Source: Candidatus Levyibacteriota bacterium
Lineage (GTDB): Bacteria > Patescibacteriota > Microgenomatia > Levybacterales > UBA12049
Length of the DNA stretch: 64,000 nt
Direction of reading: 5' to 3'
Assembly: GCA_963716145.1 (NCBI GenBank)
Contig: OY970292.1
Location: forward strand, 746,169 to 810,168
Each line of letters begins with the position of its first letter. Position 1 is the stretch's first letter. Positions 1-48,076 of this stretch are shown one piece after another. The notes below the pieces were generated by a model. The model was not told where the DNA came from. It saw only the letters and a list, made by a program, of their open reading frames with translations, and searched no databases. Position numbers and translations under genes: made by a program.

Positions 1-313
1 TTTTGTTGGGTTATACCAGGCATTCAAATTATTAAACTTTATTGATGCCAATAAAGCCTTTTCCCAAGGTGCTGTTAATACACTCAAGAATATGAAATTT
101 GCCTCTCTCAGTCTTATCGGTTTTATTGTATTAGCAGTGTTTTACATCCGTTTCGTTGCGAGTGGTGATGATCCAGCAGGTCCGACGGCGCTTGGAATTA
201 TTATCAACTTTCGCTTCTATCGTAATTGCAACCGCTGCTGCTGTTTTTCAAAAACTTCTCAAAATGCGGTAGACATAAAATCAGAAAATGATTTAACAGT
301 ATAAGGCAGGAAT

Positions 314-523
314 ATGGCAATAATAATCAACATTGATGTGATGCTGGCAAAGCGAAAAATGAGCGTCACTGAACTCACAGAGAAAGTTGGTATAACCATG
401 GCCAATCTTTCCATCTTGAAAAATGGAAAGGCAAAGGCAATCCGCTTTTCAACTCTGGAGGCGATTTGCAAAGCTTTAGATTGTCAGCCCGGAGACATTC
501 TGGAATATGAAAACAAAAAGTAA
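314..523 (+). CDS. XRE-family (Cro/C1-type) HTH transcriptional regulator, YozG-like, 69 aa
   Basis: ORF track; HTH segment 'MSVTELTEKVGITMANLSILKNGK' is typical of short XRE regulators. Confidence 0.8.
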   Translation: MAIIINIDVMLAKRKMSVTELTEKVGITMANLSILKNGKAKAIRFSTLEAICKALDCQPGDILEYENKK

Positions 524-818
524 TAGCATTATGCAACACAAAGACATTGCCAGCGTTTTCGTCGTGACAACTGGCATTTTGATGATACCCTTGGTAGCTA
601 TGCAGTTTACCAGTGAAGTGGATTGGAAGCTGTTTGACTTCATCGTCATCGGCACGCTCCTGATCGGCACCGGGCTCTTAATTGTGCTGGCAGGCAAAAA
701 GATAAAAAGCACCAACCACCGAGTAGCTGCCATTATTGCGCTCTTGGTAACACTTCTTCTCATTTGGATACATCTCGCGGTTGGAATTGTCGACACCTGG
801 CCGCTTGCCGGATCGTAA
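507..818 (+). CDS. small polytopic membrane protein, likely partner of the upstream XRE regulator; true start probably downstream of the 17-bp overlap
   Basis: ORF track; three predicted hydrophobic helices; overlaps and shares strand with the XRE gene. Confidence 0.4.
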   Translation: MKTKSNSIMQHKDIASVFVVTTGILMIPLVAMQFTSEVDWKLFDFIVIGTLLIGTGLLIVLAGKKIKSTNHRVAAIIALLVTLLLIWIHLAVGIVDTWPLAGS

Positions 819-994
819 CTGGTCGCCAAGAAAGACATACCCGAGAATACTTTTGAAAATGCTTGCTCAGCCTCATGGAAATGACTAGACCCTACTTTAT
901 GAAATTATGAAAATAAGCTAATTGAGTTTGGAAAAAACAGGCAAAATTTATTTGGCTGCAGCTATATTCGCCAGCTTTTCGGATTGCTTCAAGA

Positions 995-1465
995 TCAAGT
1001 TTTTTCATTGGCAGGAAGACTTTCAGTTACTGCCTCCGCTTTTTCAGGGTCGCGCATCATTTCATCCAAAATTCTTGGTGCTATTTGCCATGTGACACCG
1101 AATTTGTCTGTACACCATCCGCATTGTTCAGCTTCAGGAACTGCTGAAAGTTTTTCCCAGAAGAAATCAATTTCTTCTTGTGTTTCGCACTCCACAATAT
1201 ATGAAGTTGCGCCGTTAAGTTTGAATTGATCAACAGGACCACCATTAAGAGCCATGAAGCTTATTCCATCAAGCTCGTATTCAGCTGTCATAACAGATCC
1301 TTCAGGTCTTCCGGAAACTTCTTCACTTGCTTTAGGAGTTTTTGTGATGTCTCCAATTTTTGCCTGATGATCACCAGGGGCTGAATTGAAAGTATCTATG
1401 TAGTAGTTTGCTGCCTCTTCTCCGTCATTGTTGGCAAACCAGATGCATGTAATTAGTTTACTCAT
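995..1465 (-). CDS. VOC/glyoxalase-superfamily protein, PhnB/YjdN-like ('3-demethylubiquinone-9 3-methyltransferase' domain family)
   Basis: motifs 'CIWF..EEAANYY', 'ALNGGP', 'CETQEEIDFFWEKL', 'CGWCTDKFGVTWQI' match this family. Confidence 0.7.
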   Translation of the reverse strand: MSKLITCIWFANNDGEEAANYYIDTFNSAPGDHQAKIGDITKTPKASEEVSGRPEGSVMTAEYELDGISFMALNGGPVDQFKLNGATSYIVECETQEEIDFFWEKLSAVPEAEQCGWCTDKFGVTWQIAPRILDEMMRDPEKAEAVTESLPANEKT

Positions 1466-1466
1466 T

Positions 1467-1895
1467 TTATTTATCAGGAGAAAATTCTATTATCCACTCA
1501 ATACCGTATTTATCTCGAAACATACCCGCATATGAGCCCCACGGACTATCTCCCATAGGTCCTTCTACTTCTCCGCCAGCCGAAAGGCCAGTAAATAATC
1601 TGTCCGCCTCTTCTTTACTTTCCGTATTTACCAAAATCTTGCTTCTGTTTTCGTTCTCATTTACTCGTCCCAGAACTTCCGGAACATCATTGGCTATCAA
1701 CATAGTACCTGTACCGATAGGTAAAGCAATATGCATTATTTTATTTTCTTCTTTTTCTGGCACAGGGAATTCAGCGCTCGCAATGTCTTTGAAACGTACT
1801 ACTTTCGCAAACTCTCCGCCGAATACTGATTTATAAAACGTAAATGCTTCTTCTGCATTACCGTTGAAGTTAATCCAAGGATTTATTGTTGCCAT
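1467..1895 (-). CDS. VOC/glyoxalase-superfamily protein, PhnB-like, tandem paralog of the previous gene
   Basis: 'NGNAEEAFTFYKSVFG', 'MHIAL..G..LIAND', 'FRDKYGIEWII' pattern; adjacent, same strand. Confidence 0.65.
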   Translation of the reverse strand: MATINPWINFNGNAEEAFTFYKSVFGGEFAKVVRFKDIASAEFPVPEKEENKIMHIALPIGTGTMLIANDVPEVLGRVNENENRSKILVNTESKEEADRLFTGLSAGGEVEGPMGDSPWGSYAGMFRDKYGIEWIIEFSPDK

Positions 1896-2071
1896 ACAGC
1901 AATAATAGCAAATTAAAGTAATTTGTAAAGAGCTTTTATTTGGCTCCGCCTAATGGACGAAGTCAGAACCTACTATGTTAATATGTAGTTATTTGAATTA
2001 AGCTTGCAATGAATTCTTGCTTATATTGATAAGTGAGTTTAAATAATAGTATAGTATAGTATAGTATATAT

Positions 2072-2461
2072 ATGGCTAATGATCCCAAAAAAAATGAGTC
2101 GTTTTTCAAACATCTTTCCAAGCATCCAATAGATACATTTTTTGAGATATTTGTTTTTTTAGCCTTTACTCCCCTTTATACAAAAGTTACTCCCTGGATT
2201 TCAATTCCCTTAGCATTTATACAAGATATTGTTATCTTGGTCATTATGCTATTACTATTTAATGCAGATTCGGTGCACACTGGGGTTCGTATAAGCTTAT
2301 CAGCAGGTGGAATTTTGGGAGCAATACTAGCAATCGGTATTATTTCTCAATTAATAGAATTTGTTTATTCTAATCTAACTATTTGTATAGTAGGCTTATT
2401 GGTATTTTATATCTATGTTTTTGCAACAAACAAAAGACCTCGATTTGAATGGATTGATTAA
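2072..2461 (+). CDS. hypothetical integral membrane protein (AT-rich island cargo)
   Basis: ORF track; about 33% GC; hydrophobic helices; preceded by (tatag)x4 tandem repeat at 2049-2070. Confidence 0.4.
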   Translation: MANDPKKNESFFKHLSKHPIDTFFEIFVFLAFTPLYTKVTPWISIPLAFIQDIVILVIMLLLFNADSVHTGVRISLSAGGILGAILAIGIISQLIEFVYSNLTICIVGLLVFYIYVFATNKRPRFEWID

Positions 2462-2552
2462 GCATAGTATGTTCCGCCTGATAGACGACTTTTAATCTAT
2501 GTAAAATATTAAATTTATTTTTCAAATAGGTTTAATGTATTTAACATAACTA

Positions 2553-3281
2553 CTATTTATGAATTTCAAAACCATTAACAGTAAGAATTTTATATTTTCT
2601 ATCAAGTGGAACCCGTTTAGAGATTGTTTTGTTTAGTATCTTGCCAACTGTAACATTCTGGAGTTCTCTACGAAAATCATCTAAAAAAGCACTTATTTCG
2701 GTTGTATTTAGCCAATAAGTGTTAATTAATTTAATTAATTCTTTATCGTTTAATTTCATTGTTTTTCCAAAAAACTCTGGAAAGATTTGCTCAGTTAAAT
2801 TCATATGCTTATCATTTACCCTTGTTCTAAATTCATTTAGGAAGATTCCACGCATTTTTTTTAAAGAATCAAATATAATTTCATGATTTTCGTATGACTG
2901 CACAAAATTTACATATGCGGTTTGTAGATCTGAATACCTGTCCGAAACCTCATTCCATTTATCTAATCTGTGCTTTGTTTGATTATTCCCGTTTACCAAT
3001 GGATTGTTTTGGCTAATTATAAAATAAATCAACCATTGAATAGTTGTACTATAGTTTGAAAACGCTGTTGAAAATTCAAAAAGTTTATTTTGAAAATCAC
3101 TCCATCCTTCATAGATAATCTTGTGTTCAAATTGCTTAGACATTTGCCTAAAAGCTGTTTTAACGGCAATAAATGCGGCAATTAAAGTTACAGATGCACC
3201 AATTAAAACTCCTAGGAGTTGAGCTTCATTAGCATGGAGTGATTTAGTCCACTCGTGTAAACCTAGTATAGCTTCATACAT
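2553..3281 (-). CDS. hypothetical protein with N-terminal TM anchor (AT-rich island cargo)
   Basis: ORF track; about 30% GC; no recognisable motifs. Confidence 0.4.
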   Translation of the reverse strand: MYEAILGLHEWTKSLHANEAQLLGVLIGASVTLIAAFIAVKTAFRQMSKQFEHKIIYEGWSDFQNKLFEFSTAFSNYSTTIQWLIYFIISQNNPLVNGNNQTKHRLDKWNEVSDRYSDLQTAYVNFVQSYENHEIIFDSLKKMRGIFLNEFRTRVNDKHMNLTEQIFPEFFGKTMKLNDKELIKLINTYWLNTTEISAFLDDFRRELQNVTVGKILNKTISKRVPLDRKYKILTVNGFEIHK

Positions 3282-3432
3282 TTGAATGGATTATATCAAA
3301 AGATAAGCCATATTGCTCCCCAAGCCGTTGATTAATATAACTATAGATTTTGATAGCATAACTAACACAATCCAAGACGTACTATATATTGGAGAATTAA
3401 GAAAGAGATGGAAGGAGATTAAGCTTCTTATC

Positions 3433-4239
3433 TCAAGGGGTTAACTGTTTCAATTCATTTTCAATATACTTGATTTGTGCCATAAACGATTCTACATACC
3501 ATAAGGCTTCTCCCTCTTTTGGTTCAGGACTGTTTCCTGCATGGGCAACACCCCAAACATCTCCTCTATAAGCAACAAGATTTTCAATTAGCTTTACTTG
3601 TATTGGGTGTAAATTAATTTTTTTAGACAGCATTTTAAATGCAGATTCAAAAGTATTCTGAGTTGTAGTTTTTTTACAATAATCCTCAAAAACAATGCAC
3701 ATATCCTTTACCACATCCTTAGGTTTTTTAGATCTTGTAATCAAGCCATCCACTAGATCTCTAAAAACTTGCTGCGTCTTACTTGCAAAAGCTAATGTTT
3801 TATCTGTATCTGTTATGGTTTTTGCAGTTTCATCTTCTATTTTTAGATCAACATGTCCATCTGAGCTGAATTCATATACAGATCCTGAGTTGTTAAAAGC
3901 AAGACATATATCTCTAAAGAGTCTTAGTCTCTTAGTGCTATCCAAATCTCGTTTTGCTCTATCATAGTAAATTTCTATAAAATCGAAGATTTGATCATAA
4001 GTTGTTTTAGTTTCATCACGAAAATCCTCGATTCCTATTATATTGCCAAAATGCATTTGTAGATCTTTACTGAATGCTACATTATGTATCCAGTTAGTGT
4101 TGCCTATGCTGAAATTATATTCGTTTCCACTATAAGGATGTCCATAAAGTTGTAGTATTCTATTTCTCAGGCTTTTTGATGCATCACCGTATCCTGAGTA
4201 TTCTTTTTTTAGGCTATTTCGTTTTGAAAAAGTTTGCAT
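3433..4239 (-). CDS. hypothetical protein (AT-rich island cargo), 268 aa
   Basis: ORF track; about 32% GC; sits immediately next to the tRNA-derived repeat block. Confidence 0.4.
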   Translation of the reverse strand: MQTFSKRNSLKKEYSGYGDASKSLRNRILQLYGHPYSGNEYNFSIGNTNWIHNVAFSKDLQMHFGNIIGIEDFRDETKTTYDQIFDFIEIYYDRAKRDLDSTKRLRLFRDICLAFNNSGSVYEFSSDGHVDLKIEDETAKTITDTDKTLAFASKTQQVFRDLVDGLITRSKKPKDVVKDMCIVFEDYCKKTTTQNTFESAFKMLSKKINLHPIQVKLIENLVAYRGDVWGVAHAGNSPEPKEGEALWYVESFMAQIKYIENELKQLTP

Positions 4240-4280
4240 GTATAATTTAAATTCGAAGTAAATCCGAAGAAATCCATAGG

Positions 4281-4461
4281 TGCTCCGCGACTAGGATTTT
4301 CCTTCGGCTTCGCTCAGGATAAACTGTTTAATTTTGGGAAGTTTCGCTCCGCGACTAGGATTTCCGCCAAAGGGCGGATAAACTCCCCTCAGGACCCTGT
4401 CAGCCTACTGGCTGATTGAAGTTAACAGCTTCCTGTCCGCCAGCTGGCGGACTATCGCGAA
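4281..4461 (-). repeat. block of degenerate tRNA-Asn-derived repeats: two tandem copies of the tRNA 3' end (T-stem plus acceptor, 'gctccgcgactaggattt'), each preceded by a different hairpin, plus a 5'-half pseudo-copy (acceptor-TAG-16-nt palindrome-anticodon arm 'ttgaagttaacagcttcctg')
   Basis: direct comparison with the intact tRNA at 4478-4552; the palindrome 'tccgccagctggcgga' replaces the D-arm. Confidence 0.7.
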
Positions 4462-4477
4462 TAATATTCTAAAGATT

Positions 4478-4552
4478 TGGCTCCGCGACTAGGATTCGAA
4501 CCTAGGACCTTGAAGTTAACAGCTTCCTGCTCTACCGCTGAGCTATCGCGGA
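4478..4552 (-). tRNA. tRNA-Asn (anticodon GTT), CCA encoded
   Basis: hand-folded cloverleaf: acceptor TCCGCGA/TCGCGGA, D-arm GCTC-AGCGGTA-GAGC, anticodon arm GGAAG-CTGTTAA-CTTCA, T-arm CTAGG-TTCGAAT-CCTAG, discriminator G then CCA. Confidence 0.85.
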
Positions 4553-4561
4553 GCCAAATCT

Positions 4562-4807
4562 TTACTTTGGAATATATTTTTTTATGAATTCTCTTCCCCG
4601 GTAACTTTTTAATTGTCTTTCTCGGATCAATGCTGATCTGCGATCAACAACTTCTTCTTTATAAATCAGAACCCATTCCCCATCAATCTTTGCCGTAAAA
4701 TGATTTCCTCTTTTTTTATTATGTTCAGTTAGCCTTGATTCTATATTTGCTGTTTGCCCAATGTAAATTTTGTCTTTTAAACCGTTGTGTAAAGCGTATA
4801 CCCACAT
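4562..4807 (-). CDS. GIY-YIG nuclease family protein (YhbQ/UPF0213-like, 81 aa)
   Basis: 'KIYIGQTANIESRLTEHN' GIY-YIG core with conserved Arg and Glu-His; flanked by tRNA-Asn and the tRNA-derived repeats. Confidence 0.8.
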   Translation of the reverse strand: MWVYALHNGLKDKIYIGQTANIESRLTEHNKKRGNHFTAKIDGEWVLIYKEEVVDRRSALIRERQLKSYRGREFIKKYIPK

Positions 4808-4818
4808 TGAATAATTAT

Positions 4819-4856
4819 ACAGCTTCCTGTCCGCCAGCTGGCGGACTATCGCGGAA
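4819..4856 (-). repeat. truncated tRNA-Asn 5'-half pseudo-copy: acceptor TCCGCGA, TAG, palindromic hairpin, anticodon stem up to 'CTGT'. It is a 35-bp near-perfect direct repeat of 4425-4459
   Basis: sequence identity to 4425-4459 and to the 5' half of the real tRNA; it breaks exactly in the anticodon loop, where the GIY-YIG gene begins. Confidence 0.7.
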
Positions 4857-4959
4857 TATTTTTACGGTATCTGGTATTTTATCACGAAGCCTTATACAAA
4901 TCTATATATAAAAATAGAGTTGAAAAACTTACCCGCTTTCTGCTACTCTTATATGTCCT

Positions 4960-6345
4960 ATGCTCCCCAAATCAATTTGTTTTGTAGATCTTGAAACAAC
5001 AGGAACAAGTGCTTCTTATAACCGCGTAATTGAAATTGGAATTCTTAAAACAATTGATGGAAAAATCGTCAAAAAATACAAAACACTTATTAATCCTCAA
5101 ACTCATATTGATCCTTTTATAGAGCAATTGACAGGAATAAGGCCAGCTGATTTGGAGAACGCTCCTTTATTTGAGGATGTTAAAGATGAAATAGCTGAAA
5201 TTTTGGCTGATTCTGTTTTCGTAGCTCACAATGTCAGATTTGATTATGGATTTCTGCGCAATGAATTCAAAAGATGCGGTACAAGACTAAGTCTTAAACA
5301 TTTCTGTACAGTCAAGCTTTCACGCATTCTTTTTCCTGATCTGAAAAGACACAATTTGGACGCAGTAATTGAAAAGTTTGGTATAAAATGTGAGAACCGC
5401 CACCGAGCAATGGACGATGCCAAAGTGCTTTATGAGTTTTATAAAAAATCCCAAAAGCTAGTTGATAGCGAAGTATTTGAACGAGCTGTAAATATAGCGC
5501 TAAAGAGGCCCAGTATTCCTCTTAACATCAGTCAAGACGTCTTGGACAATCTCCCCGAGTCATCCGGTGTTTATGTGTTTTATGGAGAAGGTGATTCTAT
5601 CCTTTACATCGGAAAAAGTATCAATATCCACGACCGTGTTTTGTCGCACTTTTCAAACGACCATGTCTCTTCAACTGATATGAAAATATCAAAAGAAATA
5701 ACCCACATTGAGACAATTGTGACCTCCGGAGAATTGGGAGCATTGCTTCTGGAATCAACGATGATCAAAAAGCATCAGCCGTTTTTCAACCGCCGCCTCC
5801 GAGCGTCACGGAAAATGACAATTCTTATGAAATGTGTTGATCAAAACGGCTACAATTCCACCGAAATCAAAGAACTTGAGGCTATATCTGTTACTGATAT
5901 AGATAACATAATCGGAGTTTTCAAAAATCCCAAGCAGGTAAAAGATTTTCTCTATATTCTGGCTAAGAATTACCGGCTTTGCCCAAAATTGTTAAGACTT
6001 GAGAAAACGAAAAGCTATTGTTTTTATTATCAGCTTAACCAGTGTGATGGCGCCTGTAAAAATGATGAGCTTAACCTGAAATACAATCTGCGCTTTGATG
6101 AAGCTTTTTACAAGCACAAGATAAGGCCATGGAAGTTTGAGGGCCCGATAATAATTAAAGAAAATAACCATGCTAAAGACGGATTTGTGGTGGATAAATG
6201 GTGTCTTCTCGGCAAAATCAATGCTGACACGGGCTTTGAAGATTTATCAAAAGAATATATATTTGATCTTGATACATACAAAATCCTGAGCAGATTCATA
6301 ACAAAACGCGATAAATCCCTGACAATCAATATGCTGAAAAATTAA
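4960..6345 (+). CDS. DnaQ-like DEDDh 3'-5' exonuclease fused to a UvrC/Cho-type GIY-YIG nuclease domain (Cho-like excinuclease or PolIII epsilon-like)
   Basis: Exo I 'FVDLETTG', Exo II 'HNVRFDYGFL', Exo III 'HRAMDDA'; GIY-YIG 'GVYVFYG..ILYIGKS...R..SHF'. Confidence 0.75.
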   Translation: MLPKSICFVDLETTGTSASYNRVIEIGILKTIDGKIVKKYKTLINPQTHIDPFIEQLTGIRPADLENAPLFEDVKDEIAEILADSVFVAHNVRFDYGFLRNEFKRCGTRLSLKHFCTVKLSRILFPDLKRHNLDAVIEKFGIKCENRHRAMDDAKVLYEFYKKSQKLVDSEVFERAVNIALKRPSIPLNISQDVLDNLPESSGVYVFYGEGDSILYIGKSINIHDRVLSHFSNDHVSSTDMKISKEITHIETIVTSGELGALLLESTMIKKHQPFFNRRLRASRKMTILMKCVDQNGYNSTEIKELEAISVTDIDNIIGVFKNPKQVKDFLYILAKNYRLCPKLLRLEKTKSYCFYYQLNQCDGACKNDELNLKYNLRFDEAFYKHKIRPWKFEGPIIIKENNHAKDGFVVDKWCLLGKINADTGFEDLSKEYIFDLDTYKILSRFITKRDKSLTINMLKN

Positions 6346-6350
6346 ACCTC

Positions 6351-6941
6351 ATGTATAATATGTCCATGAAGGAAATTCTGGGATTTACGACAATCATACT
6401 TGCTATAACTGGACTTATTCCTTACTTTCTGGATATTCTCAAAGGTAAGACCAAACCACATCTTTACTCCTGGATACTTTGGACCGTGACATCAATTTTG
6501 GTTTTTGTTGGGCAAATCCAAAAAGGGGCTGGAGCGGGGGCATGGAACACAGGTATAGTCGGATGCTTATCGCTTTTCATCACAGTCCTGACATTTAAAA
6601 AAGGCGCCAAAGATATAACCAAGTCAGATAAATTGATGTTTGCAATTGCCCTATTGTCAATAATACCCTGGCTTTTAACCAAAGACCCGACACTGTCAAT
6701 TATAATTTTGACTGGAATTAATCTTTCAGCGGTTGTTCTCACAATGAGAAAAACCCTCAAACATCCTGGTAGCGAAAGCTTAATTCTGTATTCAACAAAT
6801 ATTATCAGGCACTTTTTGGCAATAATTGCGTTATCAAACTACAATCTCGCAACATACATTTTCCCGAGCTCACTTTTTATAGCAAATATATTAATGGTTT
6901 TTACTATTTTGAAGCCATCTTACTTTTTTAAGCGAAGCTAA
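6351..6941 (+). CDS. polytopic membrane protein of unknown function, 196 aa; paralog of 57856..58446
   Basis: shared 'L..IKGK.KP...W.LW' and 'KHPGSESL.LYS' / 'SHPETESYLVYF' segments, same length. Confidence 0.5.
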   Translation: MYNMSMKEILGFTTIILAITGLIPYFLDILKGKTKPHLYSWILWTVTSILVFVGQIQKGAGAGAWNTGIVGCLSLFITVLTFKKGAKDITKSDKLMFAIALLSIIPWLLTKDPTLSIIILTGINLSAVVLTMRKTLKHPGSESLILYSTNIIRHFLAIIALSNYNLATYIFPSSLFIANILMVFTILKPSYFFKRS

Positions 6942-7075
6942 TTCTTGCATTTTCCTTACTTTCCTTTTATTTGTTTATATTAAAGAAAAACTAATATATT
7001 AGCATATGGAAACGCAATTATTACTCTTAACATCAGGTGCTGTGGGCTTTTTTGTCTTCATGAAAACCCAATTCC

Positions 7076-8071
7076 TCAATTAGTAAATTCTTGAGAGTAC
7101 ATTTTCCCGTATACTCCCCCATCAATTACTCCTACTCCTATTTTGCCGAAATTTGGACTGAGGATATTTTTTCTGTGTCCCGGACTATTCATAAGTCCCT
7201 GCATGGCAAGCTCTGTTGATGGTGCAAGTGCCAGATTTTCTCCCGCGAAATTAAACTCAATACCCGCTTTCTCCATTCGGTCAAAAGGCGAGACTCCCTC
7301 CGGGGTATAGTGGCTAAAATAGCCTCTAGCAAACATATCATCTGAATGAGCTCTTGCAACCGTGCGAAGTTCGTCATCAAAAGAAAGCAGCTTAACTCCT
7401 GCTTTTTCTCTTTCCTTATTTACAGCTTGAAACATCTCCCGCTCTGCTTGGGAATCCTCTGTGCCCTTTTGAACTTTGAAGTGAAGATTTACCTGACTCT
7501 TGCTTTGAGGCTCAACTGTCATAAAGTTGAGTGTTTCGCTCAATGCTCCGCCAAATACATCATTGAGCTTTTTTTCAAAAAAAGATGTATTTGTTATGAG
7601 CCGGGAGCCGATTCGTGAGTCTGTTACCAAATTTTTAACAAGGGGGGACGAGGGCAAGGACACAATTACTGAAAGCAAAAAAGACAAGACTATAAAAGCC
7701 GAGACTGCGCCTGGCACAAGGCCCAAAAAGTGGTCAATTTTTTTAAATATTTTGTAAATAACAAATGTTGGAGGTATGGAAGGAATCCTGTTAAGCAATT
7801 TCCTAAAAATAATACTTAGCAGTACTTCAGCAACTAAGGCTGTCAAGAAAAATCCTGCCGCATTTGCAAAACCCAAAGGCATAGAAAAAGAATTTATCAG
7901 AAGGGAAGCAACCAAACCATAAAATTTAAGAGCAATTATAAATGAGAGAACAAAGCTTGCCAAATCCAAAAAGGCCAGAGTAAAACCTAAAACATATCCT
8001 TCATGGGCATAAAACAGAATAACTACTACAGTAATAATATCCAGTAGATTTATGCCAAAATTTCCCATCAT
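7076..8071 (-). CDS. fusion protein: N-terminal CvpA-family membrane domain plus C-terminal CAP/SCP (YkwD-like) domain
   Basis: N-terminal multi-TM CvpA-like region; C-terminal 'GYFSHYTPEG...SPGHRKNILSPNFGKIGVGV' CAP signature. Confidence 0.65.
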   Translation of the reverse strand: MMGNFGINLLDIITVVVILFYAHEGYVLGFTLAFLDLASFVLSFIIALKFYGLVASLLINSFSMPLGFANAAGFFLTALVAEVLLSIIFRKLLNRIPSIPPTFVIYKIFKKIDHFLGLVPGAVSAFIVLSFLLSVIVSLPSSPLVKNLVTDSRIGSRLITNTSFFEKKLNDVFGGALSETLNFMTVEPQSKSQVNLHFKVQKGTEDSQAEREMFQAVNKEREKAGVKLLSFDDELRTVARAHSDDMFARGYFSHYTPEGVSPFDRMEKAGIEFNFAGENLALAPSTELAMQGLMNSPGHRKNILSPNFGKIGVGVIDGGVYGKMYSQEFTN

Positions 8072-19602: not shown

Positions 19603-19690
19603 GGAGGGATGTCTGAGTGGTTTAAGGTAACTCCTTGCTAAGGAGTCGTGGGGGTAAACCCTACCGCAGGTTCGAATCCTGTTCCCTCCG
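19603..19690 (+). tRNA. tRNA-Ser (anticodon GCT), class II with long variable arm
   Basis: acceptor GGAGGGA/TCCCTCC, anticodon arm ACTCC-TTGCTAA-GGAGT, T-loop TTCGAAT, discriminator G. Confidence 0.85.
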
Positions 19691-19746
19691 CTTCAAATTA
19701 CAATTCATATATATAAATTGCTATTAGTTTTTGCTAACATTAGATT

Positions 19747-20293: not shown

Positions 20294-20378
20294 GGAGGAG
20301 TCGCATAGTGGTCTAGTGCAGCGGTTTACTAAACCGCCATACCGCAAGGTATCGGGAGTCCGAATCTCCCCTCCTCCG
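20294..20378 (+). tRNA. class II tRNA, tRNA-Ser(GCU) paralog with anticodon loop TTACTAA (apparent anticodon ACU, A34) and T-loop TCCGAAT (C55); possibly a pseudo- or atypical tRNA
   Basis: hand fold: acceptor GGAGGAG/CTCCTCC, D-arm GCAT-AGTGGTCTA-GTGC, anticodon stem GCGGT/ACCGC, variable-arm hairpin ATACC-GCAA-GGTAT, T-stem GGGAG/CTCCC; the anticodon loop differs from the upstream tRNA-Ser by a single G-to-A change at position 34. Confidence 0.6.
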
Positions 20379-20418
20379 CTCTTATATTAATAATCCTCTT
20401 TCTGCTACACTAATTAAA

Positions 20419-22095: not shown

Positions 22096-22677
22096 ATGAA
22101 CTCAGGAATCAGATACTGGATCCCGCTTGCTGTGACCATCACAGCGCTTTGCGGATTAATTTATTTAAGCGGGCAGCAAAACCTGAGAATGGGCGCGAAT
22201 GATCCCCAAATACAAATGTCTGAGGATATTGCAACTCGTCTTAGCATAAATCCCACCCTTCCAAATCTCACTTCATCAAATAAAATAGATATTTCAAAAA
22301 GCCTCAGTCCTTTCATAATTATCTACAACGACAAAAACAAGCCCGTTCTCTCAACCGCCCAGCTTGATGGAAACACACCCCTCCTCCCACCCGGCGTTCT
22401 TGCCAATGCCAGCAACAATAGACAAAACAGGGTCACCTGGGAACCAAAAAAGGGCGTCAGAAGTGCTGCTGTCATAACCAGATACAGTGGTAGTAAGGGT
22501 TCAGGATATGTGCTTGTTGGCCGCTCTCTTCGGGAAGTTGAAATACGTGAAGATACGTTACTAAAAATTGTCGGGCTTGCCTGGATCGTTACACTTATTG
22601 CCTCCCTAATCGCCAAGGTAATTTTTATCCCAAAACAAAAGAAGAATCCTTCGACTAAGCTCAGGACAAAAAAATGA
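22096..22677 (+). CDS. hypothetical membrane-anchored protein
   Basis: ORF track; N- and C-terminal hydrophobic segments. Confidence 0.35.
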   Translation: MNSGIRYWIPLAVTITALCGLIYLSGQQNLRMGANDPQIQMSEDIATRLSINPTLPNLTSSNKIDISKSLSPFIIIYNDKNKPVLSTAQLDGNTPLLPPGVLANASNNRQNRVTWEPKKGVRSAAVITRYSGSKGSGYVLVGRSLREVEIREDTLLKIVGLAWIVTLIASLIAKVIFIPKQKKNPSTKLRTKK

Positions 22678-23009
22678 AAATACTAATAAATTGGTTAGTC
22701 AGCGCTCTTGTTATCTTAACCGCATCTTATATTCTACCGGGTGTACATATTGCAAATTTCACAGCCGCGCTTGTAACAGCGGTTGTTTTGGGAATTATTA
22801 ATGCTCTCATCAAACCTATATTTCTCATTTTGACACTTCCTATAACAATTATCACTTTAGGGTTATTTACCCTTGTTATAAATGCTCTTATGATTCTTTT
22901 GGCAAGTTCAATTGTGCCGGGTTTTAAAGTAGACGGATTTTGGTGGGCGTTTATTTTCAGTATAGTTTTATCATTAATCAATTCTTTTGTTAATACTTTT
23001 AATGATTAA
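22674..23009 (+). CDS. DUF360 / phage holin family 4-like small membrane protein (YvlD-like)
   Basis: 'ILPGVHI..F..AL..A.VLGIINALIKPI..ILTLPITIITLGLFTLVINALMILL.S..VPGF.VDGFW' matches the YvlD/DUF360 pattern. Confidence 0.6.
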   Translation: MKILINWLVSALVILTASYILPGVHIANFTAALVTAVVLGIINALIKPIFLILTLPITIITLGLFTLVINALMILLASSIVPGFKVDGFWWAFIFSIVLSLINSFVNTFND

Positions 23010-45347: not shown

Positions 45348-45408
45348 GCTACTTATTTTTTACCTCCTACTTTCCTCTTAACTATTTTTTACTTCTTTAT
45401 CTTAAAAC

Positions 45409-45437
45409 TTGACAATTTTATGCATATGTGTTAGAAT
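45409..45437 (+). promoter_or_regulatory. near-consensus sigma70 promoter: TTGACA - 17 nt - TAGAAT
   Basis: -35 at 45409-45414, 17-nt spacer, -10 at 45432-45437; about 34 nt upstream of the ATG at 45471. Confidence 0.6.
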
Positions 45438-45470
45438 TAGTTATTAATTGTTAAATTGAGTAATAATTTT

Positions 45471-47213
45471 ATGAACCAAACTACCTTACTTTCTACGGAT
45501 GCAGCATGCAAACTTCTTGGAGTTACTAGACAAACGCTTTATAAATTGCTTGAAAAGGGAGAGATTCCTGGAAAAAAAGTTGGGGGTAGCTATAAATTTG
45601 TACAGCAGCAGCTTCTTGACTACATGAATAACAACTCAAAGCAAAATGAATATAAAGAATGGGAACTAAAGGGAGATTTTGCCACAGAAGGAATTAAAAA
45701 AATGGCAAAAAGAACTTTTCAAGAACTTGCCTCAAACTTAGAAGAATTAATAGCAAACGCTTACGATGCTGATGCTACTGAAGTACAAGTAACCATCGAC
45801 CAAGATAAGAAAACATTAAGTATCACAGATGATGGCAGCGGAATGGATGAAAAATCACTTTCCTCTTATGTAATTTATGGAGAAAGTCAGAAAGATACTA
45901 ACTACAGATCTCCCAAGTTTAAGCGAGCACCCATAGGGGAATATGGAATGGGCGGCAAGCTGGCCATCACAAATATCTGCAATCTTTGTAAAATCATAAC
46001 CAGAAAGCAGGGCAAAGAACACATATTTAGCATGAATAGAGCAGATCTCGATAAGGCAAAATTTGTTAGCGATATTACAAGCAAAGTACTAACAAAAAAT
46101 TGCTCCCCCACTCTTAACGGTACATCAATACATATGGAAAAATTATTTTCTAAAACTATAGACAGTGAGAGATTATTAGAAAGATTTTCTACTAAAATGC
46201 CAAAGAGTCAGAATTTTAAAATAACTGTAATAATCATAAAAGACAATGAGAGGAAAGAAATTGAAGTAAAAGAACCAGAATTTGAATATGAAGAAAAATT
46301 TGATTTTAGTGAAAAATTGAACTTAATAGGAGATGCCAGAATGACCATTTATTTCACAAAAGAACCCATTTCCCCTACCAAACAAGGGGTGTGGACTAGG
46401 GTAAACGGAAGAATTGTTAACGAAAAAGCAGAATGGTTTGACTTATTTAGAGCGACATCTGGAACTAGATATCGATATAGGCTGTTTGGTTATGGTGAAG
46501 CTAATGGTTTAAAAGATTTTGTTACTTTTTCCAAAAACGATTTTATTGATTGCCCGGAATATAGAGAATATTGGAATTTTGGTCACAAAAATATTTTAAA
46601 AGTTCAAAACAGCTTACTTAAAAGGGATGACGATGCAAAAAAAGTCCGAGACAGAACTATTGTAAAATCAGTAGAAGATGAAATCAATAAGATAGTCTCA
46701 AGGCTTGATACTCCTTCTATTTTGGGCGGCCTAGAATCAAAAATTAAGAAAGAGTTTACAAAGGAAATAGAAAATGCTCCCGAAACAGCTTACCCAAATT
46801 TTGAAGCGGTTGAAAAAGAAGCGGAGAAAATAGCAAATGATGTAAAAAGAGGGAAAGACAGAAGAGAACGCAGAAATCAAAGTCTTACCTCTAGTGAAAA
46901 AGTAAATTTTTCAGGTAAAAACTATTCTATAATTACCGTCAATTTATCAGAAAAGGGTGATCTAGTAAAGTTTGTGAAGGAAAAAAATTTGATAGAAATT
47001 AACGAAAGACATCCACTTTACAACAAATCTTCAAGCGATAATAACCTAGAAAGTTTTATTATGAATATTGCATTTACTGAAATTGCTCTGGATTACAGTG
47101 ATGGAAACTTTTTGAGTTTTGATAGTGTATTTAATGCCTTAGCAAGAATTGCTTCTGAGAAGGTTACAGTAAGTCAAATTACAGAACAAACCATTCGAGA
47201 TACTACCAATTAA
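45471..47213 (+). CDS. excisionase-type HTH (HTH_17-like) fused to a GHKL/MORC-like ATPase (HATPase_c_3-like), with a long C-terminal region of unknown function (alternative TTG start at 45456)
   Basis: N-terminal 'LLGVTRQTLYKLLEKGEIPGKKVGGSYKF'; GHKL N-box 'LEELIANAYDADATEV', G1 'DDGSGMD', G2 'GEYGMGGKLA'; about 32-35% GC. Confidence 0.6.
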   Translation: MNQTTLLSTDAACKLLGVTRQTLYKLLEKGEIPGKKVGGSYKFVQQQLLDYMNNNSKQNEYKEWELKGDFATEGIKKMAKRTFQELASNLEELIANAYDADATEVQVTIDQDKKTLSITDDGSGMDEKSLSSYVIYGESQKDTNYRSPKFKRAPIGEYGMGGKLAITNICNLCKIITRKQGKEHIFSMNRADLDKAKFVSDITSKVLTKNCSPTLNGTSIHMEKLFSKTIDSERLLERFSTKMPKSQNFKITVIIIKDNERKEIEVKEPEFEYEEKFDFSEKLNLIGDARMTIYFTKEPISPTKQGVWTRVNGRIVNEKAEWFDLFRATSGTRYRYRLFGYGEANGLKDFVTFSKNDFIDCPEYREYWNFGHKNILKVQNSLLKRDDDAKKVRDRTIVKSVEDEINKIVSRLDTPSILGGLESKIKKEFTKEIENAPETAYPNFEAVEKEAEKIANDVKRGKDRRERRNQSLTSSEKVNFSGKNYSIITVNLSEKGDLVKFVKEKNLIEINERHPLYNKSSSDNNLESFIMNIAFTEIALDYSDGNFLSFDSVFNALARIASEKVTVSQITEQTIRDTTN

Positions 47214-48076
47214 TGATGCAATTAGAATTGCCACTTCAGCAGAAAAAAAGGAAAAAATATAAATCGAGACAATCGGTAAAATACACTCCAAGCAAAGATC
47301 AGACTAGTAAATTACTAATGATAGAAGAGCTCTATTATCAAAAAGGTACCTTGCAAAAGACTGCTGACCATTTAGGACTAACAAAACAAAGAGTAAGTCA
47401 GCTATTAAATAAGGGTAAAAAATACAAACTTTACACATATGAGTTGGCTAGAAAAAGAAATTTGAAAAATCTAGCGGAGAAAATTGGAAGAGAAAACTTA
47501 ATAAGAGAAATAAAAAATGAAATAATAATACCTAAGATATGTAAAAAATTGGGTATAGATATTGTAGACTTCCATAAATTAATTAAGCATTTTGAACTTG
47601 ACTATCAAGACTATAATTTAAGCGCAAGACAGAGAAGATATATAAGAATGTATATGAACATAGTTGATGAGCTAGGACATCATCCCTCTACAACAGAGAT
47701 GAACACTAGAACAAAATGGAGAGGTGTGTGGTCTGGTTTATCCAGACACTGGAACAGCATGGAAAAATTCAGAAGGGAGTTTGGAATTGAACAACCACCG
47801 AGATTTATTCATCCCAATACAATAGTGGGTTTTAGGGAACATAAAATTAAAGTTAAACAAAAAAAGGCAACAAATATAGATAAAATTAGAGAACTCCTCC
47901 AAAATTATAGTATCCCAGTAAACATAGAGATGATTGCTAGTAATTTCACTTGCGCTCGAGGTACAATAAATAACTATCTCACAACACTCATATCTACAGG
48001 AGAGATAATTAAAATCAGAGAAGGCAAACGTGTAAAATATACGCTTAAAAAAACGCACATTAACTCAAGTATATAA
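47213..48076 (+). CDS. DNA-binding protein with a sigma-70 region-4-like HTH plus a C-terminal winged-helix-like segment; overlaps the stop of the upstream gene
   Basis: 'TLQKTADHLGLTKQRVSQLLNKG' HTH; C-terminal 'GTINNYLTTLISTGEIIKIREGKRVKYTL'; stop-start overlap TAATG; AT-rich. Confidence 0.5.
   Translation: MMQLELPLQQKKRKKYKSRQSVKYTPSKDQTSKLLMIEELYYQKGTLQKTADHLGLTKQRVSQLLNKGKKYKLYTYELARKRNLKNLAEKIGRENLIREIKNEIIIPKICKKLGIDIVDFHKLIKHFELDYQDYNLSARQRRYIRMYMNIVDELGHHPSTTEMNTRTKWRGVWSGLSRHWNSMEKFRREFGIEQPPRFIHPNTIVGFREHKIKVKQKKATNIDKIRELLQNYSIPVNIEMIASNFTCARGTINNYLTTLISTGEIIKIREGKRVKYTLKKTHINSSI

Follow-up and report, generated by a model that had tools for sequence, protein, structure and literature searches.

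A probable integrase-less, compositionally foreign islet at the tRNA-Asn 3' flank of a Patescibacteria genome, with an AbiJ-type abortive-infection candidate

Introduction

Genomic islands linked to tRNA genes have integrase-less derivatives, among them CIME-type cis-mobilisable elements and the defence islets found at tRNA hot spots. Here we describe a segment of this general kind in a 64,000-nucleotide stretch of contig OY970292.1 (the window), which comes from a Patescibacteria (candidate phyla radiation, CPR) genome; the proteins encoded here are recorded on a contig of 1.14 Mb, and their named homologs are mostly labelled 'Patescibacteria group bacterium'. The segment carries three AT-rich open reading frames (ORFs), called A, B and C below, next to the 3' end of a tRNA-Asn gene. 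We consider it reasonably probable that it is an integrase-less and compositionally foreign accessory islet, built up piecemeal in the 3' flank of tRNA-Asn between positions 1950 and 4474, and that its interpretable cargo, protein C, is an abortive-infection candidate of the AbiJ type with a HEPN domain. The segment resembles tRNA-linked islands in its location 3' of a tRNA, in its direct repeats of the tRNA end, in its atypical composition and in its accessory or defence cargo. It differs from them in that it is just 2.5 kb long, holds three unrelated genes, lacks an integrase and has a distal repeat of 12 nt. A further difference is that B is also linked to tRNA-Asn in a distantly related genome, a finding that points more to a lasting hot spot than to a single mobile unit.

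The closest described counterparts of protein C combine an N-terminal AbiJ-NTD4 domain with an AbiJ-type HEPN domain. This architecture was defined by Anantharaman et al. 2013 (PMC3710099), with CBY_0614 of Clostridium butyricum as the type example, and the N-terminal domains of such proteins were proposed to sense phage components and to restrain a suicidal HEPN RNase (PMC3710099). The mechanism of lactococcal AbiJ, which has another N-terminal domain than C, is uncharacterised, and its escape mutants map to a phage single-stranded-DNA-annealing protein (PMC13064643). AbiV, by comparison, is a HEPN RNase whose activity an RNA neutralises (PMC13064643). The PADLOC candidates termed PDC, to one of which (PDC-S32) protein C is related, are untested defence candidates that occur inside BREX, DISARM or type I restriction-modification (RM) loci (bioRxiv 10.1101/2024.01.29.577857).

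Composition and layout of the segment

The three ORFs and the left flank of the segment are as follows.

2072..2461, + strand, ORF A (129 aa, GC 31.3%)
2553..3281, - strand, ORF B (242 aa, GC 30.2%)
3433..4239, - strand, ORF C (268 aa, GC 32.8%)
995..1465 and 1467..1895, both - strand, two VOC/PhnB-like genes of the left flank (VOC1 and VOC2; GC 41.4% and 39.9%)

The GC content of positions 1900-4260 is 30.8%, compared with 39.4% for the whole window. Among all intervals of 2361 nt in the 64 kb, the minimum falls at 1901-4261 (0.307; mean 0.394, standard deviation 0.024, z ~-3.6). Third-codon-position GC (GC3) shows the same behaviour, A, B and C being the three lowest of 64 long ORFs (0.22-0.235 against 0.361 +/- 0.061). 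When tetranucleotide usage is corrected for base composition, the segment ranks first of 617 intervals in its deviation from the remainder (r = 0.37, against 0.75 +/- 0.07 elsewhere), and it likewise ranks first of 617 by raw 4-mer distance. The compositional anomaly exceeds chance.

These data bear on a first-pass annotation of the same DNA, which had proposed an AT-rich island at tRNA-Asn. The positions that it gave for the three ORFs are borne out, and the strands are added here. Its range of about 30-33% GC for the ORFs agrees with ours, while its figure of about 42% for the flanking VOC genes is slightly too high. It had named uniform k-mer usage as the pattern that would speak against an island; usage in the window is not uniform, and a foreign-looking composition is supported by GC, GC3 and the tetranucleotide rank alike.

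Protein C

Protein C can be divided into two domains.

3844..4239, - strand, AbiJ-NTD4 domain, the presumed sensor (aa 1-132; Pfam match; alpha+beta in the model)
3442..3834, - strand, HEPN-fold domain (aa 136-266; codon of R225 at 3565-3567, codon of H233 at 3541-3543)

Residues 3-130 match the Pfam family AbiJ_NTD4 (PF18863) with E = 1.3e-6 and 29.3 bits. The family was matched by all 25 of the homologs that were aligned, with a best E-value of 8.5e-10, and precomputed Pfam annotation lists PF18863 for most of the 49 homologs found. These 49 proteins form a tight family, with 55-67% identity and lengths of 262-271 aa. Nearly the full length of C is also covered by the PADLOC models for PDC-S32. 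Residues 1-261 align to positions 7-279 of the 285 positions of PDLC04997 (E = 1.6e-10), and C matches PDLC04996 at 6.5e-11; the same two models are matched by 19 and 16 of the 25 homologs, respectively.

The AlphaFold2 model of C (pLDDT 81.6, pTM 0.75) has an alpha+beta N-terminal domain followed by a helical C-terminal domain with the HEPN fold. The residues of the C-terminal half that are invariant across the 25 homologs include H211, Y224, R225, G226 and H233. The first-pass annotation had described the 268-aa protein as helical with an R..H pair near its C-terminus, and had guessed at cargo of the phage-defence or abortive-infection type. Both remarks hold for C, which is mostly helical, in which R225 and H233 are the invariant pair, and whose architecture is AbiJ-NTD4 plus HEPN with a PDC-S32 match. 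Its statement that none of the three proteins belongs to a recognisable family stands for A and B and fails for C, given the AbiJ_NTD4 and PDC-S32 matches. A search of PDB sequences with a profile of the C family returned nothing meaningful, and a weak match to DUF4145 (0.028) was seen in one of the 25 homologs.

C thus resembles the described AbiJ-NTD4 + HEPN proteins in being a single polypeptide of ~270 aa with an alpha+beta N-terminal domain, a helical C-terminal HEPN fold and a conserved Arg...His pair. Its family is also alike in consisting of stand-alone genes found near restriction-modification genes, and differs in its hosts, since the homologs occur in metagenome-assembled genomes of both Patescibacteria and Actinomycetota, that is, in several phyla. 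In one locus (L002) the homolog adjoins Dcm and Vsr, and in another (L006) it adjoins a PLD-SNF2 helicase, an MmeI-type methyltransferase and a TIR protein. These contexts resemble those of PDC-S32, which is a single-gene candidate nominated through guilt by embedding. The copy in the window differs from them in that it lies in a tRNA flank and is not embedded in another defence system. The TIR protein of L006 is encoded by a separate gene, is 413 aa long and is a divergent neighbour of the C homolog.

An additional protein on a 1409-nt NCBI contig (P0048, 382 aa) carries an AbiJ-NTD4 domain that is 67% identical to that of C over the first half. Here the domain is fused to a MarR-type winged helix-turn-helix and a TIR domain, and there is no HEPN domain. 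P0048 thus represents a natural swap of the domain that would act as effector, and it supports a modular view of AbiJ-like proteins in which sensors and effectors are exchanged.

On the favoured reading, C would act alone as an abortive-infection or defence protein of the AbiJ type. Judging from its family, the AbiJ-NTD4 domain would sense a phage component and otherwise keep the enzyme off. Upon infection it would release the C-terminal HEPN RNase, in which R225 and H233 would be the catalytic pair. The RNase would then cut cellular or phage RNA, so that translation stops before the phage cycle is complete.

Two other HEPN-based arrangements were considered for C. A HEPN-MNT toxin-antitoxin pair (type II/VII) was rejected because no nucleotidyltransferase ORF adjoins C or its homologs in the window, L002 or L006. 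The type III HEPN systems (AbiV, AbiF) differ in that no conserved upstream RNA repeats accompany the C homologs in L002 and L006. From both kinds of system C is set apart by a HEPN domain that does not stand alone and is fused to an N-terminal domain.

The tRNA-Asn block and the boundaries of the segment

The right-hand side of the segment is occupied by a tRNA gene and several sequences related to it, and the following features are needed here.

4478..4552, - strand, tRNA-Asn (GTT), the anchor of the islet (ARAGORN; Rfam tRNA 67.1 bits), 3' end toward the segment
4282..4298, - strand, copy of the 3'-terminal 17 nt of tRNA-Asn (GCTCCGCGACTAGGATT), with a GC-rich hairpin motif next to it at 4299-4325
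4346-4362, second copy of the same 17 nt (GCTCCGCGACTAGGATT), forming the end of the tRNA-Asn-derived variant
4346..4460, - strand, tRNA-Asn-derived variant of 115 nt with a cloverleaf-like fold
1938..1949, distal att-like 12-mer (ATTTGGCTCCGC), in the same orientation as its exact match at 4475-4486
4562..4807, - strand, GIY-YIG ORF of 81 aa, right of tRNA-Asn
4960..6345, + strand, DnaQ-exonuclease/GIY-YIG (Cho-like) gene, here Exo-GIY-YIG

The 3' end of tRNA-Asn, at 4478, faces the segment, as expected for insertion at the 3' end of a tRNA. Both 17-nt copies of this end lie between the tRNA and C, in agreement with the att-like duplicated tRNA ends of the first-pass annotation, which had missed a further 12-nt repeat at the other side. 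At 4475-4486 the 12-mer ATTTGGCTCCGC comprises 3 nt of flank, the CCA and 6 nt of the acceptor stem. Its copy at 1938-1949 falls in the intergenic region between VOC2 and A, at the point where GC drops from ~0.40 to 0.31, i.e. at the distal edge of the AT-rich DNA. When this intergenic region of 176 nt was shuffled, 2 of 2000 shuffles reached a 12-nt match to the tRNA region. The 12-mer also matches the inverted 5' flank of tRNA-Asn because the two flanks of the tRNA are complementary. With the tRNA-end 12-mer at 1938-1949 and its counterpart in the tRNA, the segment 1950-4474 is bracketed by att-like direct repeats. A second candidate att pair around ORF A (1944-1963 and 2470-2489, 15 of 20 positions matching) was dismissed as chance, being equalled in 34% of shuffles.

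The variant at 4346-4460 retains the acceptor stem and the GUU anticodon arm of tRNA-Asn. GC-rich hairpins replace the D arm (UCCGCC-AGCU-GGCGGA), fill the variable region (an extra UCAGCC-AGUA-GGCUGA) and expand the T loop (by CCGCC-CUUU-GGCGG). Its folding energy is -53.3 kcal/mol (z = -3.8), and neither ARAGORN nor Rfam makes a call on it. The pattern CCGCCN4GGCGG occurs three times in the window, always in the tRNA-Asn block, where 0.01 occurrences would be expected. A second copy of the 5' half of the variant is present at 4819-4853, past the 81-aa GIY-YIG ORF. This ORF is flanked by the intact tRNA-Asn on one side and, on the other, by a 5'-half tRNA fragment whose homology stops in the anticodon loop.

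A perfect inverted repeat of 19 nt (4470-4488 and 4546-4564, TAAAGATTTGGCTCCGCGA and TCGCGGAGCCAAATCTTTA) extends the acceptor stem of tRNA-Asn by ~11 bp into both flanks, and a long precursor stem is therefore predicted for this tRNA. The GC-rich hairpin-forming motif CTTCG(G/A)CTTCGCTCAG(GA/TG)TAAAC at 4303-4325 agrees in 20 of 23 positions with 6843-6865 of L015, a groundwater Patescibacteria contig. It lies upstream of C in the window and downstream of the B homolog in L015. As an informative link between the two loci the motif was discarded. A scan of IMG/VR with its 15 specified bases gave 25 matches, roughly estimated to be no more than chance, of which 2-3 extend into a hairpin or stem context (L031, L050, L039).

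In the Logan assembly of the source sample (ERR11593400), one contig (L001) covers ~1445-4390 and another (L018) begins near 4823. The assembly is thus interrupted to the left and right of the tRNA-Asn repeat block, with a further break near the junction of VOC1 and VOC2. These breaks fit repeats or strain heterogeneity and prove nothing.

Proteins B and A

Protein B is predicted to be anchored in the membrane by an N-terminal transmembrane (TM) helix. A confident model (pLDDT 90.3) shows a long bundle of four helices with a beta-hairpin at the C-terminus. Lys and Arg residues after the TM helix suggest that the C-terminal domain is cytoplasmic. No annotated family in Pfam, PADLOC, PHROG or NCBIfam is matched. 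The B family comprises roughly 150 clusters and is uncharacterised; every named member belongs to the Patescibacteria. A tRNA in the same orientation is located upstream of B in five of seven independent loci.

L025: tRNA-Ser, 9 nt from the B homolog
L010: tRNA-Gln, 158 nt from the B homolog
L015: tRNA-Asn, 403 nt from the B homolog, with a GIY-YIG gene between them
Window: tRNA-Asn, 1.2 kb from B, with C between them
L014: tRNA-Gln, 4.7 kb from the B homolog, with a large serine recombinase abutting the tRNA

Another member has Mrr, NA-iREase, DUF3800 and DUF4145 genes around it, and the most distant member checked is surrounded by housekeeping-like genes. That three of seven B genes lie within ~400 nt downstream of a tRNA is unlikely by chance, according to a rough binomial estimate (<1e-3) that assumes ~1 tRNA per 20-25 kb in such genomes. 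This association leads to a more speculative idea, which we rate as improbable: the B family could be a dedicated passenger of tRNA 3' flanks, moved or maintained together with tRNA and GIY-YIG modules independently of an integrase. One candidate route would be nuclease-triggered repair or homing, to which the tRNA-Asn variant with its hairpins and the half-tRNA copies would also owe their origin. Expression of B would depend on read-through transcription that starts at the tRNA promoter. In a weaker variant of the same idea, the tRNA-like RNA may modulate the adjacent HEPN RNase C.

Protein A is small, with four predicted TM segments. A search of 5.8 billion proteins returned A itself as the sole match, and there was no significant match in Pfam, PADLOC, PHROG or NCBIfam. 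The GC content of its codon positions falls in the order GC1 > GC2 > GC3 (0.40/0.32/0.22), consistent with a coding sequence. A promoter-like arrangement (TTGATA-18-TATAGT) is present upstream at 2026-2055, and a pentanucleotide repeat, (ATAGT)5.6, occupies 2046-2072 and abuts the ATG. Through this repeat the promoter or leader of A could vary in length.

Relatives of the locus and points against the favoured reading

L015 is informative about the history of the locus because it combines tRNA-Asn, a GIY-YIG gene and a B homolog in this order. The contig shares SpoIID, LytR_C and Rpe with the window in a different arrangement, at ~55% protein identity. Its surroundings are RpoD and CSD, whereas those in the window are Exo-GIY-YIG and the VOC genes. 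Identities between the two are 53% for B, 57% for Rpe, 54% for DnaG, 51% for SpoIID, 45% for LytR_C and 84% for RpoD. The GC content of B in L015 is host-like (0.36, compared with 0.368), and AT-richness is therefore not intrinsic to the B gene. A and C are absent from L015. The two GIY-YIG proteins (4562-4807 in the window, 5674-5935 in L015) gave no BLASTP match to each other.

The distributions of the three proteins are unrelated, C being found in several phyla, the named relatives of B in Patescibacteria, and A nowhere else. Among the homolog loci C never adjoins B, and the partners of B vary from locus to locus. A functional link between B and C was considered and rejected, as they do not co-occur elsewhere and as the 268-aa protein encoded next to B in L014 showed no relationship to C (E = 2.8). 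Given the shared tRNA-Asn, GIY-YIG and B of L015 and the housekeeping-like divergence of B, the locus is better read as a piecemeal, tRNA-linked variable hot spot than as one decayed island. The first-pass proposal of an island integrated at tRNA-Asn is accordingly upheld in respect of foreign composition, position at the tRNA 3' end and repeats, and weakened in respect of a single insertion by the unrelated gene distributions and the B homolog of L015. Conservation of the genes in place across the lineage, which had been named as evidence against it, is observed in part, for B alone in L015. The islet DNA would then have been acquired from AT-richer donors, probably gene by gene rather than in one event, and A and B would be independent accessory genes of unassigned role that co-occupy the hot spot.

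Searches for further relatives of the site added little. In a scan of genome contigs the closest relative of Exo-GIY-YIG (L012, 56% identity) has no neighbourhood in common with the window, and in metagenome contigs there were remote GIY-YIG matches with no close relative. Exact-sequence look-ups of VOC2 and of the 81-aa GIY-YIG protein gave nothing; those of C and Exo-GIY-YIG gave contigs of the same sample only.

Several observations weigh against the favoured reading. With respect to the locus, the presence of B next to tRNA-Asn and a GIY-YIG gene in L015, combined with a divergence like that of housekeeping genes, means that B need not be recent; it may have resided in the tRNA-Asn flank for a long time, or have been repeatedly re-acquired there. 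No relative with an empty site was found in the scans of genome and metagenome contigs, and the distal repeat is merely 12 nt. No integrase or recombinase was found among the ORFs or Pfam matches of positions 1-8000. The non-coding DNA of the segment amounts to ~650 nt, and as its longest piece is 238 nt it is too short to hide a remnant; the first-pass suggestion that the integrase had been lost therefore remains an assumption. With respect to C, the AbiJ_NTD4 score of 29.3 bits is below the Pfam gathering score of 34. Unlike the described AbiJ-NTD4 + HEPN proteins, C has no match to the Pfam HEPN clan or Abi_C (E <= 0.1) or to the PADLOC AbiJ model. The spacing of the Arg and His residues is x7 (RGDVWGxAH) in most members of the family, outside the canonical Rx4-6H, and x5 in two homologs (P0043 and P0045). 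H233 itself falls in a loop of low confidence in the model (pLDDT < 50, residues 232-235). In the window C is surrounded by B, A, the VOC genes and the tRNA, with no other defence genes close by. Finally, we know of no experimental test of PDC-S32 or of NTD4-class AbiJ-like proteins, and of no phage of this host.

Alternative explanations

The points concerning L015 could also be accommodated if this were a long-standing, lineage-specific neighbourhood of tRNA-Asn in which B is an accessory gene passed on by vertical descent, as A and C possibly are too. The AT-richness and odd k-mers would then reflect weak selection, low expression or the composition of membrane proteins, and the copies of the tRNA end would be products not of integration but of duplication or repair taking place locally, near the tRNA and GIY-YIG genes. 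We regard this as possible but doubtful. The shared tRNA-Asn, GIY-YIG and B homolog of L015, with B identity in the range of housekeeping genes, are what this explanation predicts. It is also in keeping with the lack of an integrase, with a tRNA block rich in local duplications (the variant tRNA and the second 5'-half copy), and with the absence of B and C homologs from the IMG/VR, phage and plasmid collections. It does not readily explain why the segment remains an extreme outlier after correction for base composition (r = 0.37 compared with 0.75 +/- 0.07), why B has host-like GC in L015, or why a 12-mer lies exactly at the compositional boundary. Also difficult to reconcile with it are the spread of C over phyla in unrelated defence contexts, its absence from L015, and the lack of any relative of A.

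Two further explanations assign C a different role, and both seem to us very unlikely. C could be the toxin of a type III-like pair, with the structured RNA derived from tRNA-Asn and the repeat (4282-4460) serving as antitoxin or decoy. On the strand of C, two partial repeats and a stable tRNA-like element (z = -3.8) do indeed precede it by 40-220 nt, with no terminator-like site in between. Upstream of the C homologs in L002, L004 and L006, however, there is plain AT-rich DNA with a -10-like GATATAAT, in which neither repeats nor tRNA-like sequence were seen, and in L002 no tRNA is within reach. It is because these homolog loci have no upstream repeats that we disfavour a type III-like pair. 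The repeats are more simply explained as duplications of the tRNA 3' end, and the AbiJ architecture has a regulatory N-terminal domain of its own. Alternatively, the segment could be a remnant of a prophage or satellite, with A and B as membrane proteins of the holin or superinfection-exclusion type and C as a phage-borne moron. The combination of membrane proteins with an Abi gene beside a tRNA is typical for the ends of prophages, A has a weak match to a PHROG holin (E = 0.14), and the B homolog of L014 lies 4.7 kb from a tRNA-Gln flanked by a large serine recombinase. Yet no phage signal of any kind was obtained, which is our reason for disfavouring such an origin. None of the three proteins has a significant PHROG match. 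Searches of IMG/VR turned up no relative of either B or C, and searches of GenBank phages and PLSDB plasmids no relative of C. The model of B has no BFVD match at E <= 0.001, and there are no structural or replication genes nearby. A piecemeal accessory islet thus remains the explanation that we favour.

Other features of the window

The sole other clear compositional outlier of the window is at 45.3-48.1 kb (45351-48076; GC 0.32, tetranucleotide r ~0.53). It contains a gene for a 580-aa protein with HTH_17 and HATPase_c_3 domains, a MORC-like ATPase (45471..47213). Directly after it, at 47213..48076, is a gene for a 287-aa protein with a Sigma70_r4-like helix-turn-helix and weak matches to LAGLIDADG and HNH repeats. 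This region may be another acquired or defence-type module.

ARAGORN also predicts a tRNA-Ser with the anticodon ACT, which is unusual for bacteria, at 20294-20379 on the + strand, 0.6 kb from the tRNA-Ser(GCT) at 19603-19691. A 111-aa gene at 22674-23009 on the + strand has a GC content of 0.324 and a strong match to Phage_holin_4_2 (E = 1.9e-37).

Significance

Protein C belongs to a known and computationally defined kind (AbiJ-NTD4/HEPN, PDC-S32), and defence islets in tRNA flanks are commonplace, so that the islet does not overturn current understanding. It adds a CPR example to the PADLOC candidate family PDC-S32, and with R225 and H233 it offers concrete residues for mutation. CPR genomes mostly lack classical mobile-element machinery. 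In this setting an ultra-small genome of ~1.1 Mb appears to keep a horizontally acquired abortive-infection candidate of the AbiJ/HEPN type at a tRNA hot spot. The only unusual elements, which we put forward as leads, are the habit of the B family of residing in tRNA flanks and the tRNA-Asn variant with its added hairpins, which neighbours a GIY-YIG gene. Both bear on how accessory genes may be gained and expressed in CPR genomes.

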